Source: a virus (taxonomy: Duplodnaviria > Heunggongvirae > Uroviricota > Caudoviricetes). Taken from it: a DNA stretch of 7,567 nt. The stretch is from the IMG/VR virus record IMGVR_UViG_2690316028_000015; one strand, given 5' to 3'. The position numbers and the translations under genes are program-made. The notes beneath the pieces were generated by a model, which saw only the letters and a program-made list of their open reading frames with translations, searched no databases and was not told where the DNA came from. Of the stretch, positions 1,659 to 6,478 are shown in pieces; position 1 is the stretch's first letter, and every line of letters starts with the position of its first letter.

Positions 1659-4130
1659 TTAAGAATCAGCCTGACTCGGGATCAGTTTTTGCCAGATAAC
1701 TGAAACGTATTTTGCCTGGTAACGGGCGTCATCAAGTGCATTATGGCGCTCACCTTCGAATGGAATAGCCGTTCTGGCATCGAAGTCTATGGCTTTCCCC
1801 AGCTCAACGATTGTGCGTACATCGCGATCGTTGTAGTAACGCCACGGGCAGGGGATCCCCTGCCGTTCGTATGAACGGCGCAAAATCGTGTTGTCGAAGT
1901 TGGCTCCATTTCCCCAAACCTGAACAAAAAATTCACCGGAGTTTTCGTCGATAAATTCCCGCAATTGTAACAGTGCATCATCTAACGGGATTTCATCGGT
2001 CATAATGGCAGATTGCGCTTCGCGTGATTGCTTAAGCCACCATTTAATGGTGTTCCGATCAATGACTCCGCCAGCAGTTTCCAGATCGATAGTCTTACTA
2101 AATTCCGGTCCCATATCTCCGGTTTGCGGATCGAAAAATATTGCACCTATTGAGATGATCGGGGCATCAGGATTTTTTCCCATGGTTTCAAGGTCGATCA
2201 TTAGATGGTCACACGTCCTGCTGGTGGATGTGATTTCGTGATGACCGTTCACCTTAATTGAGTGATCTGCCGTCTCGCCAGTTTCATTATCGCTATTGTG
2301 ATGCTGATTGCCGCCAGTGTTCTCCTTGTGTGGATGTTCAGCGCCTTCCATTTCCTCCGGATCATCTTCCTGAACTTCAACCTGATATTCTTCATCGAAT
2401 GTTTCTTGATATGTTGCGTCGCCCATCACCGCGCCACAATCAGGGCAGTTGCCGCCGCCGGTCTGACCGCAGGCGGTGCAGACTTTTTCCACTTCCTGTT
2501 GCGCCACTGGTTCAGGCTGTTTCGTTTCTGGCTCGTTTTGTAACGCATTTGTGCTGTTTTGTTCCGCTTTTTGGTAGTTCCGTTCCGATTCATGCTGGTT
2601 CTGGTTCACAGAATCGCGGGTCTGGATCCCCTTAACCCATTTCGGATCATTCGGGTCACTAATCCCTTCAACAAATTCACCACGTGATGCAGCAAGCAAC
2701 TTATCGGCGTCAGGCTGGCTGATATTGGCTGCCTGCATAATTTTGTTTACTTCGTCAGCGGTAACTTTTATCGGCTCTGGTTGTTCTGAATCTTCAGCGG
2801 TATCTACATTTTGCGGTAAGCCCGTGTATGTGCCATTTTTTCGGGCAAAATATTCTTCTTTTGTGATTTCAGTGGCGCCAGCAGCCAGTGCCTTATCCAG
2901 ACCAGAAAGTTTGTTTGCGCGACCGTATTTTTCTCCGTCCTTATCTGCGAAGAGGAAATAGAACGGCCCCTCACGCTCTACAGATGGTTCAGCTTCCGGC
3001 GCGGTTTCATTTTTTGGGATATCAGATACCTCAGTTTCCACTGCATCAGTTTGTGTTTCTGATGACTGGAGAACATCAACAGTGCCCAGGTCTGTTTCTT
3101 CATTCTCAAACACGCCCTTTGTCGTCAGGTATTCGCAGATATATTTGTTCAGTGCTATGGGATCTTTGTGAATGTCGATCGGACGCTCACGGACAAGGCC
3201 AAAAATAGTCTGGCGGTCGTAGCGAAGGGCATCAGGCTGTTTGCGCATTGATGCCGAGATACGCTTCCAGTCTTCGCGGTCGTTGTCGATAACTTCTTTT
3301 TTTGCCCAGCGATGGATGCTGCCGTCAATGTTTCCGGCATCCACATCACTAGGCCAGAGAGCGTAGGCCAGTTCGTCATCCAGTGTTTTCCATGTCTGCT
3401 TGTATTCGCGATGAATGGCAGCAATGACCGGGCTGATTTTTCCTGTTGAATTTTCAGTGTACTGTTGATTGGCTCTGGCGCGGGCGAGATCAACAACAGA
3501 CGTGTATTTTCCGGTTTCCTTGCGTTCACCTTCGCGACGTTTTTTCCAGATGCGCATCTCTGCCTGAATTTCGGGCCATTTAGCACCAGGAATACATTTA
3601 TGCTTAACCCACCCAATGGCGTGCAACTTAAGCTCCGGATACATGGCGTTAACTTCTGGCATTTTCATCAACGCTTCAACGATATGTCCGTCGAATGTTG
3701 CCATGTCTTCCTGCAACAATTCCTGTGCGCTAATAACCATATCAACGGTGATGTTTTCACATGTGTCGAACTTAACCATGACAGCGTTCTGTACTTCAGG
3801 GGCCAGCTTGTCAAAAGTGACGTTCATCGGATCGGATTCAGTCTCAACCGGGACAAAAGAAGCAGACTCCTCATCCCAGCGGTTTTCCTGCATATATTCA
3901 GCATCCCATGAATCGAGGGCAGGGCGGGGTATGCCAGGTTTATCCTCGCAGACAATAAATTTATAAGCGCAGTCCTGAGCAGCCGGATAATGTTCCAGGA
4001 ACTGCCAGTGAAATTTTGCTCGAGCACGGCGTTCGTCGCCAGCTTCAATGGCTGTGGCTACAGCCACAGCGCCTTCTTCCCTTGTTGCCAGTTCGTCAGG
4101 AATAGCGGCGCAAATAAAGACTTTACTCAT
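1659..4130 (-). CDS. ydfE: Large prophage exonuclease: N-terminal region of unknown function, Cys4 zinc ribbon, acidic linker, C-terminal DEDDh (DnaQ/RNase T-like) 3'-5' exonuclease domain; counterpart of the K-12 ydfE pseudogene
   Basis: 823-aa ORF with GAGG 10 nt upstream of the ATG at 4128-4130. C-terminal motifs MIDLET (nt 2184-2201), VWGNGANFDNT and HNALDD (nt 1728-1745) are read directly. CTACGQTGGGNCPDCG lies at nt 2436-2480. Confidence 0.85.
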   Translation of the reverse strand: MSKVFICAAIPDELATREEGAVAVATAIEAGDERRARAKFHWQFLEHYPAAQDCAYKFIVCEDKPGIPRPALDSWDAEYMQENRWDEESASFVPVETESDPMNVTFDKLAPEVQNAVMVKFDTCENITVDMVISAQELLQEDMATFDGHIVEALMKMPEVNAMYPELKLHAIGWVKHKCIPGAKWPEIQAEMRIWKKRREGERKETGKYTSVVDLARARANQQYTENSTGKISPVIAAIHREYKQTWKTLDDELAYALWPSDVDAGNIDGSIHRWAKKEVIDNDREDWKRISASMRKQPDALRYDRQTIFGLVRERPIDIHKDPIALNKYICEYLTTKGVFENEETDLGTVDVLQSSETQTDAVETEVSDIPKNETAPEAEPSVEREGPFYFLFADKDGEKYGRANKLSGLDKALAAGATEITKEEYFARKNGTYTGLPQNVDTAEDSEQPEPIKVTADEVNKIMQAANISQPDADKLLAASRGEFVEGISDPNDPKWVKGIQTRDSVNQNQHESERNYQKAEQNSTNALQNEPETKQPEPVAQQEVEKVCTACGQTGGGNCPDCGAVMGDATYQETFDEEYQVEVQEDDPEEMEGAEHPHKENTGGNQHHNSDNETGETADHSIKVNGHHEITSTSRTCDHLMIDLETMGKNPDAPIISIGAIFFDPQTGDMGPEFSKTIDLETAGGVIDRNTIKWWLKQSREAQSAIMTDEIPLDDALLQLREFIDENSGEFFVQVWGNGANFDNTILRRSYERQGIPCPWRYYNDRDVRTIVELGKAIDFDARTAIPFEGERHNALDDARYQAKYVSVIWQKLIPSQADS
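1662..2213 (-). other. DEDDh exonuclease domain within the 823-aa protein (about residues 640-823)
   Basis: The three exonuclease motifs occur in the expected order and spacing: D-x-E in MIDLET, Asp in NFDNT, H-x4-D in HNALDD. Confidence 0.7.
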
Positions 4131-4223: not shown

Positions 4224-4415
4224 TTAAAGACCTGCCGGGATTTCGATATTATCCTGGTGAATAACTTTATCGACCGGGTAACAGTTACCGGGAATTTTCT
4301 GTTCGGTTGCTGCAGTCATACACTCCTGCATTGTCCTGTGAACACTGACTGCAATATCAACTGGCTCTCCGGAAACAAGAAAAACTGTCAGAACAAGCGC
4401 AAATGCTGAATTCAT
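4224..4415 (-). CDS. ydfD: Small hydrophobic-N-terminus protein YdfD (reported as a lysis-inducing protein of Qin)
   Basis: 63-aa product MNSAFALVLTVFLVSGEPVD... from the internal ATG at 4413-4415. AAGGA lies 8 nt upstream and the ATG overlaps the dicB stop as ATGA. The longer 81-aa ORF call is rejected because its extra N-terminus is the dicB 3' end in another frame. Confidence 0.8.
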   Translation of the reverse strand: MNSAFALVLTVFLVSGEPVDIAVSVHRTMQECMTAATEQKIPGNCYPVDKVIHQDNIEIPAGL

Positions 4416-4600
4416 TGTGCACATCCTTTTGGCATCAGACGTAAACGAGCCAGCATTGAAACAATGCATATTTTATTTAATAGCTCCCGTTCTTGTTTTC
4501 TCTTGTTAATGGCATCTTCAGTAAATACAGGGTTACTGATAGTGACACCAATTTCAAAACAACCTTCAGACGTATTAACGTTTGGTAATAACGTTTTCAT
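4412..4600 (-). CDS. dicB: Cell division inhibitor DicB (small protein, MinC-dependent division block)
   Basis: 62-aa product MKTLLPNVNTSEGCFEIGV...MPKGCAQ from the ATG at 4598-4600, with GAGGA 7 nt upstream. The sequence matches my memory of K-12 DicB. The 97-aa ORF call has no RBS at its start. Confidence 0.85.
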   Translation of the reverse strand: MKTLLPNVNTSEGCFEIGVTISNPVFTEDAINKRKQERELLNKICIVSMLARLRLMPKGCAQ

Positions 4601-4769
4601 TATCGCGTCCTCAACAATGAATTTTGTGATGCAGTGCCTGGTGCCTCCAGGTGACGTTAACCAGTTAACAATTAACGCCGGATACAGAGAATCCACCCAT
4701 AACACTGTTTTTGGTTTTAACTGTTCCGCGTGCGCTTAGCCGCATTCACCGCATCACAAAATTCACTTT

Positions 4770-4827
4770 AAAAACGGCGGCAGAGCAGTCACGGAGTAAA
4801 ACTGATACCGCCAAACGTCACCAGAAA
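4770..4827 (-). ncRNA. dicF: DicF small regulatory RNA (Hfq-dependent, targets ftsZ and other mRNAs), including its 3' stem and U-tail
   Basis: The reverse complement of 4770-4827 reads TTTCTGGTGACGTTTGGCGGTATCAGTTTTACTCCGTGACTGCTCTGCCGCCGTTTTT. This matches the DicF sequence as I recall it, ends in a GC-rich stem plus T-run, and lies about 170 nt upstream of dicB. Confidence 0.75.
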
Positions 4828-5102
4828 ATTGATAACAGAGGGCGTTGCAGCGGGGTTGTCACTTAAGCGTATGGTCAACCTGACAACTCGGTGTCCTCAA
4901 CGGGGAAGGAATAACCCCGCCATACTTACCGCCGCGCCATTTCGCGGGTTGCCACAACCGGAAGCGCACGGTCGAATTAAATTTAACGACACCGTACAGT
5001 GAGACGAACTTCGCCGTGCGCTTTCGTGTTGTGTGCCTGCTTTTAACCACGTCAGGCGAGGTGGTATCCTTCTTATTCCGAATAACCAAGAAGGAAATCT
5101 AT

Positions 5103-5303
5103 ATGACTAAAGAAGAATTTGTCTCTTATATTTTTGATAAAACGGTTGAAATGTATGCCGCTACTTACGGGTCCTGTAATCCTCTGAATAAACCAGAGGG
5201 GAAAGATGATTTCGACAAAATTTACCGCTTCTTGGAGGACCGCTATATCAAAAGGTTAGAGGACGCAGGGATCAAATCCCCAGTGAAGTCACCATTGTCC
5301 TGA
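5103..5303 (+). CDS. Hypothetical small acidic protein (66 aa), antisense to the dicB operon; candidate moron
   Basis: ATG at 5103 with AAGGA 7 nt upstream. The product is a balanced charged sequence (MTKEEFVSYIFDKTVEMYAATYGS...), and the ORF is noticeably more AT-rich than the GC-rich region to its left. Its 3' end overlaps the convergent 5272-5637 ORF by 32 nt. Confidence 0.4.
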   Translation: MTKEEFVSYIFDKTVEMYAATYGSCNPLNKPEGKDDFDKIYRFLEDRYIKRLEDAGIKSPVKSPLS

Positions 5304-5993: not shown

Positions 5994-6401
5994 TTATTGA
6001 TGCTTGTTGCGTTTGCGAGCCTCTAATAGCTCGGTGAACAGGCGATTAAAATTCTCAACGCGGGCGCGGAGTTCGCTGAGTTGTGCTTGTTGCTCTGATT
6101 TAGGAAGTGCGCGATACAAACGCAGCATCTCTAACTCATCTTCCGATAAGTCTAAGGCACTATCGAGTGAAACAGGGGGAGCTGGTGTTTTGTCCTCGTC
6201 GCCAAACAGTATCCAGGTTGGTGAACATTGCAATACCTCGGCGAGGCGATGCAAATTTTGCCCACGCGGGGCTGTATGGTCACTTTCCCATAATGAAATT
6301 GATGAGCCAGATACGCCAGCAGCTTTGCTTAAACCGTTTTGACTTAAGCCTACCTGCTTACGTCTTTCTCTAATGCGTTGACCTAAAGTTTTCTCGTTCA
6401 T
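5994..6401 (-). CDS. dicA: DicA-family HTH (XRE/cI-like) repressor of the leftward operon
   Basis: 135-aa product from the ATG at 6399-6401, with an N-terminal HTH (LGQRIRERRKQVGLSQNGLSKAAGVSGSSISLWE) and the segment SPTWILFGDEDK that I recall from K-12 DicA. It lies between the two operator clusters. The 152-aa call adds 17 residues that run into the operator region. Confidence 0.85.
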   Translation of the reverse strand: MNEKTLGQRIRERRKQVGLSQNGLSKAAGVSGSSISLWESDHTAPRGQNLHRLAEVLQCSPTWILFGDEDKTPAPPVSLDSALDLSEDELEMLRLYRALPKSEQQAQLSELRARVENFNRLFTELLEARKRNKHQ

Positions 6402-6478
6402 ATTTAGATATCTTAATAACCCTTGACTTGAGATTCCTTGAGTGATTAGCATTGAGAAAACTCAATATTGGAGGTGCG
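6402..6478. promoter_or_regulatory. Divergent promoter/operator region between the repressor and the cro-like gene (OR-like)
   Basis: Perfect 14-bp palindrome TTGAGAAAACTCAA at 6452-6465 plus TTGAG-containing repeats at 6428 and 6438. Candidate rightward -35 TTGACT at 6423-6428, and GGAGGTG RBS at 6470-6476 for dicC. Confidence 0.55.

Follow-up and report, generated by a model that had tools for sequence, protein, structure and literature searches.

The minus strand of positions 4828–5102 of the window (the whole stretch of viral DNA that was analysed, 7,567 nt in length) is by homology the untranslated precursor leader that yields the small RNA DicF (4775–4827). The leader contains a long imperfect hairpin and, closer to DicF, a cloverleaf-shaped RNA domain of 115 nt and four helices (4844–4958, minus strand), which makes up most of the 5′ part of the 190-nt form of DicF. 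The domain is very likely a real structure, and we place equally high confidence in the joint claim of the precursor identity of 4828–5102 and the long hairpin. The role as DicF precursor is the already known part of this description; the conserved domain appears to be new to the literature, although older papers on DicF and on the P1 genome might contain it. The best overall explanation is probably a leader with an RNase III hairpin and a four-helix domain, of which the domain would be a post-transcriptional 5′ module. Assigning to the domain this particular function, as the 5′ module of long DicF-type RNAs, is more tentative.

DicF precursor leader

DicF is among the oldest and best-studied bacterial small RNAs and acts on cell division, metabolism and EHEC virulence. 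The usual account of it ends at the 53 nt that are excised from a long untranslated region. The DicF precursor of the dicBF operon in the Qin prophage of K-12 was reportedly described by Faubladier et al. in 1990.

The 53-nt form of DicF in the window is composed of the seed and a Rho-independent terminator stem-loop (4775–4827, minus strand), next to which lies a U-run at 4770–4774. The covariance model RF00039 of Rfam matches positions 4775–4826 of the minus strand with 72.5 bits (gathering score 48), and the sequence is that of the MG1655 dicF annotation (1649382–1649434) except for the final base. The preliminary description had called the region the minus-strand precursor of DicF and had suggested a comparison with the ydfC-dicF spacer of K-12. 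This comparison bears the identification out, as the leader is 93–100% identical to the K-12 Qin spacer across ~215 nt upstream of DicF; positions 4700–5044 are 92.9% identical to a K-12 strain. The region is moderately GC-rich, as had been described, with a GC content of 0.55–0.57 against 0.34–0.49 in the flanks.

The minus strand of 4828–5102 would thus be the leader of an early-left operon of the dicBF type in a Qin/mEp460-like lambdoid prophage, from which DicF would be excised. The Qin operon (ydfABC-dicF-dicB-ydfD; Ragunathan et al. 2023, PMC10448788) has the same leader, near-identical outside the hairpin apex, where the allele differs. It shares with the window the control by a DicA-type repressor, the position in the operon, and dicB and ydfD downstream. 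The window lacks ydfB and ydfC, in place of which it has a minus-strand gene of 121 aa and, antisense to it, one of 66 aa.

PMC10448788 reports for K-12, from Northern blots and primer extension, a 190-nt DicF species with a 5′ end made by RNase III and a 53-nt species that depends on RNase E. It also reports RNA extending from the hairpin apex through DicF (Fig. S1B) and a 1,608-nt read-through transcript. RNase III is said to produce a 72-nt 3′ end instead in PMC5069750 and PMC9438474.

The linker between the domain and DicF (4828–4843, minus strand) ends at the 4828/4827 junction, where the RNase E-dependent 5′ end of 53-nt DicF is located, the RNase E dependence being from PMC10448788. A constrained fold predicts a weak 8-bp hairpin, 4830–4837 with 4816–4823, in which the junction would sit in a 6-nt AU-rich loop and some of the DicF seed would be covered. 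This hairpin is a prediction only, and its bases are invariant in E. coli-type copies.

Four-helix RNA domain

The closing helix of the domain pairs the 5′ strand GUUGUGGC (4951–4958, minus strand) with GCUGCAAC (4844–4851). Its pairs exchange as UG/UA/CG and GU/GC/UA, and the type found in phage cdtI carries GUUGUGGU/ACCACAAC. Helix Ha (CCGCG/CGCGG; 4932–4947, minus strand) has a 6-nt loop and is 99.4% paired, with one G-C to A-U double change (in L198) and U.G variants; within E. coli-type copies it is invariant. The GGU/ACC helix (4928–4930 with 4890–4892, minus strand) encloses helix Hb and is 100% paired, its third pair being UA, UG or CG. The junction GGCGGUAAGUAUGGC within 4890–4930 is nearly invariant.

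Helix Hb (4915–4918 with 4902–4905, minus strand) has a loop variable in sequence and length and shows compensatory changes at three of its four pairs, its versions being CGGGG/CCCCG, CUGGG/CCCAG, CAGGG/CCCUG, CGAGG/CCUCG and CCAGGUG/CACCUGG. Helix Hc (4881–4889 with 4853–4861, minus strand) carries a nearly invariant 19-nt loop, GGUUGACCAUACGCUUAAG (4862–4880). Compensatory changes occur at six of its nine pairs; the stem is found as GUUGUCA, GUUGCCA, GUAACCA, GCUACCA, GUUACCA and AUCACCA, each with a matching partner.

The structure is supported by covariation in a set that includes divergent copies from cdtI-like and Stx phages, a Salmonella phage, and P1 and P7. Compensatory changes affect 13 of the 32 pairs and 34 cells of the alignment, against 4.6±1.4 pairs and 7.0±2.2 cells in shuffled alignments, none of which reached the observed values (0/500). 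Controls with slid partners gave at most 9 pairs and 21 cells, and the domain is 96.9% paired, compared with 36–61% when the partners are slid. An independent RNAalifold prediction, with compensatory changes at 12 of 27 pairs, agrees with the four-helix structure. The pairing also has a strand preference, 96.9% on the minus strand and 87.6% on the plus strand. There are 111 G.U cells and 8 A.C cells, and the helices therefore work on the minus, DicF-encoding strand.

Thermodynamically the domain is unremarkable (z −1.2), and its minimum free energy (MFE) fold in isolation is the covariation structure. A 195-nt fold constrained to contain the domain lies within 0.6 kcal/mol of the MFE, and the unconstrained MFE folds of longer RNAs differ from the covariation-supported structure. 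The z of −0.25 obtained for the partial segment 4828–4952 is misleading, because the 5′ strand of the closing helix is excluded from it.

The 81 unique E. coli-type modules of the DicF-pattern set contain no compensatory pairs, the same as shuffles, and since these sequences are too similar, the result is uninformative rather than negative. A G-C to A-U exchange at 4943/4936 was rejected as compensatory, as the two changes sit in different E. coli-type sequences. Nucleotide diversity (pi) of the spacer in E. coli-type copies is 0.025, compared with 0.048 at fourfold sites, of which there are only 15. As the stems are invariant in these copies, conservation within the clade could partly reflect recent spread.

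The five inverted repeats listed in the preliminary description are all present, to within 1 nt. Three of them belong to the domain and are validated by compensatory changes in divergent homologs, namely GTTGTCA/TGACAAC (4855–4861/4881–4887), CGGGG/CCCCG (4901–4905/4915–4919) and CCGCG/CGCGG (4932–4936/4943–4947). The imperfect palindrome ACGGTCG/CGAC(A)CCGT (4968–4995) and ACGAA/TTCGT (5004–5008/5023–5027) fall inside the long hairpin and for the most part in its apex, which shows no sign of selected structure. Covariation across related prophages had been proposed as the check on the stems, and compensatory changes do appear once divergent relatives join the alignment. The suggestion of a second sRNA or regulatory element holds as far as a covariation-supported 115-nt structured domain exists. 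The long hairpin, which dominates the fold, the closing helix and the GGU/ACC helix were absent from that description.

The domain is present at 99 of 100 DicF-anchored loci, and an intrinsic terminator follows it in 152 of 154 contexts. Complete genomes (cdtI, mEp460_ev081) carry one copy each, on the early-left side. Model R1, built from the domain, scores 160 bits in the window, 164 bits in MG1655, and 94 and 102 bits in P1 and P7. Conservation is higher in the Hc loop and the junction than in the seed and terminator that follow, both of which vary by class; in the cdtI type only ~12 nt separate the domain from the terminator.

Rfam 15 gave no match to 4828–5102, whether the gathering score was applied or, under permissive filters, E values up to 10 were admitted, and none to the domain copies of P1, P7, F1055 and cdtI. 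The Rfam matches in the window are DicF and sub-threshold STnc100 and tsr32, all outside 4828–5102; the STnc100-like match is located just downstream, in the dicF-dicB spacer (4623–4763). STnc100/PasD prophage sRNAs (RF02076; Zhu, Shabalina and Storz 2026 preprint) are structured prophage RNAs of the same neighbourhood. They are a different element at other coordinates, and the four-helix domain is without any Rfam match. ARAGORN found no tRNA or tmRNA in 4600–5200, and the likeness to a cloverleaf is one of shape only.

A coding function had been doubted in the preliminary description, and coding potential was rejected on both strands. Segregating sites show no codon periodicity in 4828–5102 (15/14/18), variants differing in length by ±1 nt are frequent (42 sequences have 148 nt and 31 have 149 nt), and reading frames are not kept between alleles. 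One candidate is a small minus-strand protein encoded by a 76-aa ORF with a TTG start (4859–5089), which matches phrog_8854 (E 2e-27); one allele class has a 59-aa ATG ORF, of the length of the phrog_8854 profile. However, this ORF shares the lack of periodicity and the ±1 nt variants, and its frame is open in some alleles only, the majority K-12 type having 31–44 codons and no ATG. No Shine-Dalgarno sequence precedes the TTG, and substitutions in the region preserve RNA pairing instead. We regard such a protein as extremely improbable.

Long hairpin and mosaic junction

The long imperfect hairpin, the putative RNase III substrate, spans 4953–5033 on the minus strand, with its 5′ arm at 5011–5033 and its 3′ arm at 4953–4975. 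The stem of ~22 bp is interrupted by one bulge and one A.C mismatch and has a predicted energy of −34 kcal/mol (z −4.68). This inverted repeat is the main source of the fold signal in the whole 275 nt, which against shuffles has z −2.76 on the minus strand and −4.13 on the plus strand. About two turns of mostly continuous double-stranded RNA are available at the presumed cleavage position, as in an RNase III processing hairpin.

The long stem is retained in all E. coli-type alleles although the apices are hypervariable. Its 5′ arm is a conserved island (pi 0.05–0.06) between variable segments with pi of 0.30 and 0.39; pi is 0.007–0.012 in the 3′ arm, and the 81 E. coli-type sequences contain no double changes in the hairpin. 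The cdtI type has an apparently equivalent long hairpin of other sequence at the same place (z −3.0). In the Salmonella locus L006 the arms are recognisably the same, and the fold is no better than shuffles (z −1.2).

The apical loop spans 4976–5010 (minus strand). The 5′ half of the apex (4991–5010) is hypervariable, with ~9 alleles and pi of 0.32–0.39; the 3′ half contains the invariant motif GUCGUUAAAUUU at 4979–4990 (pi 0.007–0.016). Shuffled apices fold equally well or better, and a selected structure in the apex was therefore rejected.

Counting 190 nt from the DicF 3′ end at 4775, we infer that RNase III cuts at ~4964 (4964/4965, within 4960–4968, minus strand), in the 3′ arm of the long hairpin, and thereby gives 190-nt DicF its 5′ end. 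PMC10448788 numbers the RNase III site 813/814, which by arithmetic does not agree with counting from the transcript start implied by the 1,146-nt ydfABC-dicF transcript given there.

Upstream of the hairpin lies a shared linker, GGAUACCACCUCGCCUGACGUGGUUAAAAGCAGGCA (5034–5071, minus strand), which is a mosaic junction where upstream gene modules swap. Homology ends at ~5033, 5044 or 5071 in 100 of the 101 unique upstream sequences. The linker is also found upstream of ydfC in locus L003, and in a diverged form in L006.

The preliminary description had also offered a plus-strand reading, in which the ORF at 5103 has its 5′ region here. We consider it very unlikely that the plus strand acts as a 5′ UTR or regulatory leader of this 66-aa ORF (5103–5303), or as antisense RNA to the DicF precursor. 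The plus strand does fold slightly better than the minus strand, the ORF has a full-length match to the phage protein family phrog_34441, and a perfect 8-bp hairpin, TCCTTCTT/AAGAAGGA (5067–5095), covers its Shine-Dalgarno sequence. That hairpin is outside the conserved DicF module, and the segment past 5071 is common only to loci with the 66-aa ORF. The conserved block occurs in ~4590 of 5426 E. coli genomes, the version with the ORF in ~386 of them and in one phage record; homology with other loci stops at 5033–5071, short of the ORF. A simple promoter scan of 4693–5102 found no plus-strand sigma-70-like site, and the minus-strand transcript and its processing have been demonstrated experimentally in K-12 (PMC10448788). 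Given the genome counts and the G.U pattern, the plus-strand reading finds no support as an account of the conserved block.

Processing and possible functions of the domain

We hypothesize that the long hairpin folds first, during transcription, and is the substrate in which RNase III creates the 5′ end of 190-nt DicF; cleavage would then free the strand with which the four-helix domain closes. This order of hairpin, cleavage and domain closure is suggested by six bases, 4953–4958, which are common to the closing helix and to the base of the 3′ arm of the hairpin. The resulting 190-nt RNA would carry the domain on its 5′ side and, after a short linker, the DicF seed with the terminator. In this RNA the domain may stabilise the long DicF form and hide some of the seed, and it may offer RNase E the AU-rich linker at which the 53-nt sRNA would be released. 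Hfq may bind at the domain or the linker. The available part of PMC10448788 describes the processing sites in K-12 and does not describe a conserved multi-helix domain.

The leader of the ban operon of P1 and P7, annotated as a ‘dicF-like region’ (AF234172, 68791–68892), contains the same four-helix domain (78–83% identity over ~95 nt), followed by an intrinsic terminator. As in the lambdoid phages, the domain is downstream of a promoter under the primary immunity repressor. Of the domain, the P1 annotation box takes in only the 3′ part, together with the terminator. The E. coli-type DicF seed is lacking, the terminator is unrelated in sequence, and tRNA genes follow instead of dicB. An RNase III hairpin is absent, since the domain begins ~25–45 nt past the −10 element of the C1-controlled ban promoters. 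The unit is nevertheless of similar size, which fits an RNA made of domain and terminator as the conserved entity. The gap of ~12 nt between domain and terminator in the cdtI type means that a role in presenting the seed cannot be general.

The sRNAs of the MicL, CpxQ and SroC type (reviewed in PMC9438474) likewise end in a terminator and are freed from a longer transcript by RNase E, whose cut may be positioned by structure upstream. DicF differs in its prior RNase III step, its stable long form, and its large conserved 5′ domain, which is more widely conserved than its own seed.

The near-obligatory adjacency of domain and terminator also fits a transcriptional role. The domain could be a cis-acting leader that decides between termination and read-through at the adjacent intrinsic terminator. 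It would either act on RNA polymerase, as a put-like antiterminator, or bind a factor in the manner of an attenuator or riboswitch. Leaky transcription in the lysogen would then end at DicF, and after induction it would continue to dicB, exo, xis and int. We rate this explanation as rather unlikely, although several observations speak for it. The domain is always downstream of a repressor-controlled early promoter: in lambdoids this is of pL type, with a near-consensus sequence in cdtI, and in P1 and P7 it is Pban, under C1 control. The genes downstream of the terminator have the same orientation and need read-through, in line with the 1,608-nt K-12 transcript that PMC10448788 reports. The nearly invariant nucleotides of the junction and the loop are what a binding surface typically shows. 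The annotations of mEp460_ev081 and cdtI list no N antiterminator, which is weak evidence because N-like proteins are small and often unannotated.

The transcriptional reading meets difficulties as well. In lambdoids the upstream hairpin blocks the closing helix until RNase III has cut, which argues for action after transcription. No alternative pairing between domain and terminator is conserved across classes, and the P1 terminator is unrelated in sequence. An antiterminator pairing of GGCGGUA in the domain with the 3′ strand of the terminator was rejected, as it occurs in one MFE fold only and is impossible with the P1 terminator.

The HK022 put element (PMC9378689) is comparable in being an early structured RNA transcribed from a repressor-controlled promoter, in lambdoids without annotated N and with terminators downstream. 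However, put is ~70 nt long, forms two stem-loops and occurs twice (PL and PR), in contrast to a single 115-nt domain of four helices confined to the early-left side. An unfiltered search of the complete HK022 genome with model R1 did not detect put, the best hit being a 48-nt AT-rich fragment (GC 0.35) with 12.8 bits. The failed sequence and copy-number tests argue against membership of the put family, not against analogous action. A little more doubtful still is the broader proposal that the domain represents an unrecognised class of phage regulatory RNA in lambdoid prophages and P1-like phage-plasmids, which would head operons controlled by immunity repressors and govern the adjacent terminator. 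Such a class might act by protein-independent antitermination analogous but unrelated to put, or as a factor- or ligand-sensing attenuator.

The domain might instead be a functional RNA in its own right, as a ~137-nt fragment between the RNase III site at ~4964 and the RNase E site at 4828/4827, whose invariant 19-nt loop would pair with a target RNA, or which would bind or sponge a protein. The conservation of the Hc loop and the junction beyond the class-specific seed and terminator, the cdtI type with almost no room for a seed, and an interval with Hfq enrichment upstream of dicF in K-12 are in line with this, and PMC10448788 documents the two processing sites needed to set the fragment free. 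On the other hand, the accessible papers report no discrete ~137-nt species, and the window contains no site complementary to the loop. We consider an independent RNA, which would be the second sRNA suggested in the preliminary description, improbable, and favour the post-transcriptional 5′ module.

The 5′ part of 190-nt DicF is thus a covariation-supported domain that is conserved beyond the seed and recurs in the P1 ban operon. This conservation and recurrence point to a function of the long form, not only of the 53-nt product. The invariant 19-nt loop, the junction GGCGGUAAGUAUGGC, and the six bases shared by the hairpin and the closing helix are testable targets. They bear on how toxic early operons of prophages are kept silent yet inducible, and on how one scaffold gives rise to DicF-type sRNAs whose seeds differ. 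Should the domain control the terminator, lambdoid phages would have a second case of antitermination by RNA alone, unrelated to the first, which would explain how transcription gets past the DicF terminator, towards dicB, exo, xis and int, in lambdoids that lack N.

The long hairpin upstream of DicF

The window corresponds to the left arm of a Qin/mEp460-type lambdoid prophage. Its minus strand encodes integrase (20-1315), excisionase, exonuclease (1659-4130), ydfD, dicB (4412-4600), DicF (4775-4826; Rfam RF00039, 72.5 bits), two small genes, and a repressor of the dicA type (5994-6452); the plus strand encodes a cro-type gene. The stretch 4828-5102 adjoins DicF directly upstream on the minus strand. 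Its counterpart in MG1655 makes up the proximal portion of the unannotated 340-nt ydfC-dicF spacer. Of 5426 complete E. coli genomes, about 4590 have a match to the segment 4700-5044, K-12 among them (92.9%).

All five inverted repeats listed in the preliminary description are present in the sequence, and the stretch is moderately GC-rich (0.55-0.57). It folds more stably than shuffled sequence, with z-scores of -2.76 on the minus and -4.13 on the plus strand. The main source of this signal is a repeat absent from that list, 4953-4975 with 5011-5033, which forms an 81-nt hairpin of about 22 pairs (z -4.68, minus strand). Nucleotide diversity, computed over 70 loci with intact dicB, is 0.007 in the hairpin 3′ arm (4953-4975) and in the apex loop motif GUCGUUAAAUUU, 0.012 in DicF, 0.025 in the spacer, 0.051 in the hairpin 5′ arm (5011-5033), 0.048 at dicB fourfold-degenerate sites (15 sites only), and 0.32 in the 5′ half of the apex. 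The 5′ arm stands out as conserved between two variable segments, which argues for selection on its pairing with the 3′ arm. No selected structure was seen within the apex. The 5′ half of the apical loop (4976-5010, minus strand) is hypervariable, with about nine unrelated alleles (pi 0.32-0.39), and its 3′ half holds the invariant GUCGUUAAAUUU.

The stretch is non-coding, as first described. A 76-aa minus-strand ORF (4859-5089) matches phrog_8854; it was rejected as a gene because the frame is open in some alleles only, segregating sites lack codon periodicity (15/14/18), and length variants of +/-1 nt are frequent. The match is a product of ORF calling on conserved DNA. The proposal that the stretch is the 5′ leader of the plus-strand ORF at 5103 does not hold, since the block is far commoner than the ORF, homology between loci ends before it, and pairing favors the minus strand. 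This 66-aa ORF (5103-5303; phrog_34441, WP_000159335.1) is rare, with about 386 E. coli genomes and a single phage record (mEp460_ev081) carrying it. A perfect 8-bp hairpin (5067-5095) covering its Shine-Dalgarno sequence belongs to the ORF's own module. The ORF lies antisense within the early-left operon and converges on a 121-aa minus-strand gene, with an overlap at 5272-5303.

Structure and covariation of the four-helix domain

Between the hairpin and DicF, the minus strand forms a four-helix domain (4844-4958). It is composed of a closing helix (4951-4958/4844-4851), helices Ha (4932-4947) and Hc (4881-4889/4853-4861), and helix Hb (4915-4918/4902-4905), which a GGU/ACC helix (4928-4930/4890-4892) encloses. 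The isolated 115-nt domain (4958 to 4844) has the same cloverleaf-shaped fold as its thermodynamic minimum (-40.6 kcal/mol), an energy ordinary for its composition (z -1.2).

The preliminary description had proposed stem conservation across related prophages as a check. Pairing in the stems is 96.6% across 81 E. coli-type sequences, with zero double changes, equal to shuffled controls; these sequences are too alike for the comparison to be informative. A blastn search for distant matches among annotated phages turned up diverged copies of the spacer core in cdtI, Ayreon, 2H10 and Stx2c phages (~88%), in Salmonella phage F1055 (81%), and in P1/P7 (78-83%), where the P1 GenBank record already annotates a 'dicF-like region'. 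P1-like plasmids also carry the core (510 records). A pattern built on the Hc loop added 120 viral loci in 23 sequence classes. The covariation set, domain alignment A4, consists of 35 representatives. From these, RNAalifold independently yields Ha, Hb, Hc and the GGU/ACC helix; 12 of its 27 pairs show compensatory changes. With the closing helix added, the controlled count covers 32 pairs, and both sides change in 13 of them (4.6 +/- 1.4 in shuffles; 13 reached in 0 of 500). Compensatory changes in the stems, lacking among E. coli-type copies, are present in the divergent set. Compensatory cells number 34 versus 7.0 +/- 2.2 in shuffles, and 96.9% of cells are paired versus 36-61% with partners slid. 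The helices contain 111 G.U versus 8 A.C cells, which places the working structure on the DicF strand (96.9% paired; opposite strand 87.6%). Hardly any variation between classes is seen in the 19-nt Hc loop (4862-4880) or the GGCGCGGCGGUAAGUAUGGC stretch.

Rfam 15 has no match on the domain. No description of it was found in literature on DicF and related RNAs, within a partial coverage of the relevant older papers.

Distribution and edges of the conserved module

Loci fetched by DicF pattern alone comprised 8 from one-genome-per-species contigs and 120 from IMG/VR. For 100 of the 101 unique upstream sequences, homology to the window stretches from DicF to about 5033, 5044 or 5071 and then ends, and the genes beyond vary (ydfC in K-12, others elsewhere). 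The hairpin, spacer and DicF therefore form one conserved unit within a mosaic. A 36-nt linker, GGATACCACCTCGCCTGACGTGGTTAAAAGCAGGCA (5036-5071, minus strand), recurs where differing upstream gene modules join the hairpin, including L003 upstream of ydfC and Salmonella (L006 3770-3806), and resembles a recombination joint shared within the mosaic. Near-identical DicF modules in MAG contigs labelled Veillonella parvula (L008), Collinsella sp. (L010) and soil 'Proteobacteria' (L009) are most likely mis-binned E. coli prophage DNA.

R1, the covariance model of the domain, scores 160 bits in the window, 164 in MG1655, 152 in cdtI, 136 in F1055, 102 in P7 and 94 in P1. Of 100 DicF-anchored loci, 99 contain exactly one domain by this model. 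In the remaining one, on a Salmonella chromosome, the long hairpin lies 11 nt from a DicF-like terminator and no domain separates them, so hairpin and DicF-type terminator can be joined without the domain. At this S. enterica locus (L006 3640-3810), the DicF model match (60.6 bits) has a 5′ seed unlike the E. coli type, and the arms of the hairpin directly preceding it are recognisably the same.

The complete genomes of cdtI and mEp460_ev081 each carry a single domain copy on the early-left side. In cdtI, the domain lies ~290 nt downstream of a near-consensus promoter beside cI, and the long hairpin before it differs in sequence. In P1/P7, it starts ~25-45 nt past the -10 of C1-controlled ban promoters; a terminator (1619-1638) and tRNA genes come after it, and the long hairpin is absent. 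An intrinsic-terminator-like hairpin with a U-run lies 50-100 nt past the Hc loop motif in 152 of 154 unique contexts; this terminator and the short stretch preceding it vary by class.

Processing of the precursor and a proposed role of the domain

The minus-strand stretch was correctly described as the DicF precursor, judged by K-12 processing data and homology to the K-12 ydfC-dicF spacer; this role is already in the literature. A 190-nt DicF species is lost without RNase III and builds up on RNase E inactivation, its RNase III-dependent 5′ end was mapped by primer extension, a 53-nt species requires RNase E, and Fig. S1B of the same study displays RNA spanning the hairpin apex to DicF (Ragunathan et al., PMC10448788). 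Reports are at odds over the action of RNase III: it generates a 72-nt form with an alternative 3′ end (Balasubramanian 2016; Ponath 2022), or the 5′ end of the 190-nt form (Bilusic 2014; Ragunathan 2023, with primer extension). Counted back from the DicF 3′ end, 190 nt reaches 4964, within the hairpin 3′ arm; this position is arithmetic, not a mapped coordinate.

Positions 4953-4958 belong to both the hairpin 3′ arm and the domain closing helix, so the hairpin, the first to be transcribed, should block domain closure until RNase III cuts at ~4964. This sharing of bases would account for the much stronger conservation of the 3′ arm relative to the 5′ arm. The resulting 190-nt RNA would consist of the domain, a linker, the DicF seed and the terminator. 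A fold constrained to the supported pairs has -65.9 kcal/mol versus -66.5 for the minimum. In this constrained fold, a weak hairpin that also covers part of the DicF seed is predicted to hold the RNase E junction (4828/4827) in its AU-rich loop.

We tentatively propose that the domain acts after transcription as the 5′ module of long DicF-type RNAs, where it would contribute to stability, mask the seed, position RNase E or bind Hfq. The main alternative, which is less likely, is a transcriptional leader governing the adjacent terminator. The promoter-proximal position and the near-obligatory terminator speak for it; against it, tests for HK022 put were negative and a conserved alternative pairing with the terminator is absent. 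An intrinsic terminator (DicF or DicF-like) separates the early-left promoter from exo, xis and int in cdtI (L259) and mEp460_ev081 (L260); neither complete genome has an annotated N-type antiterminator, which also speaks for a leader. A free-standing function of the excised domain is improbable.

A sub-threshold match to STnc100 (RF02076), a prophage sRNA family (4623-4763, minus strand; 34.5 bits, E 1e-5, gathering score 47), lies in the highly conserved dicF-dicB spacer (pi 0.017), and comparable matches below threshold occur downstream of the domain in P7 (L134 2910-3025), P1 (L133 2842-2961) and phiSTEC1589 (L137 1636-1843). STnc100 has been linked to the PasD sRNAs (2026 preprint). There may be a second structured RNA between DicF and dicB.

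The 'DicF-like' 3′ units following the conserved domain differ among phage classes (L173, L176, L139, L204, L136 and others). Some classes keep the UUUUCUGGUGA seed with a different terminator; others keep a GGCGG...CCGCC terminator with a different or nearly absent seed. This suggests a family of sRNAs built on one scaffold.
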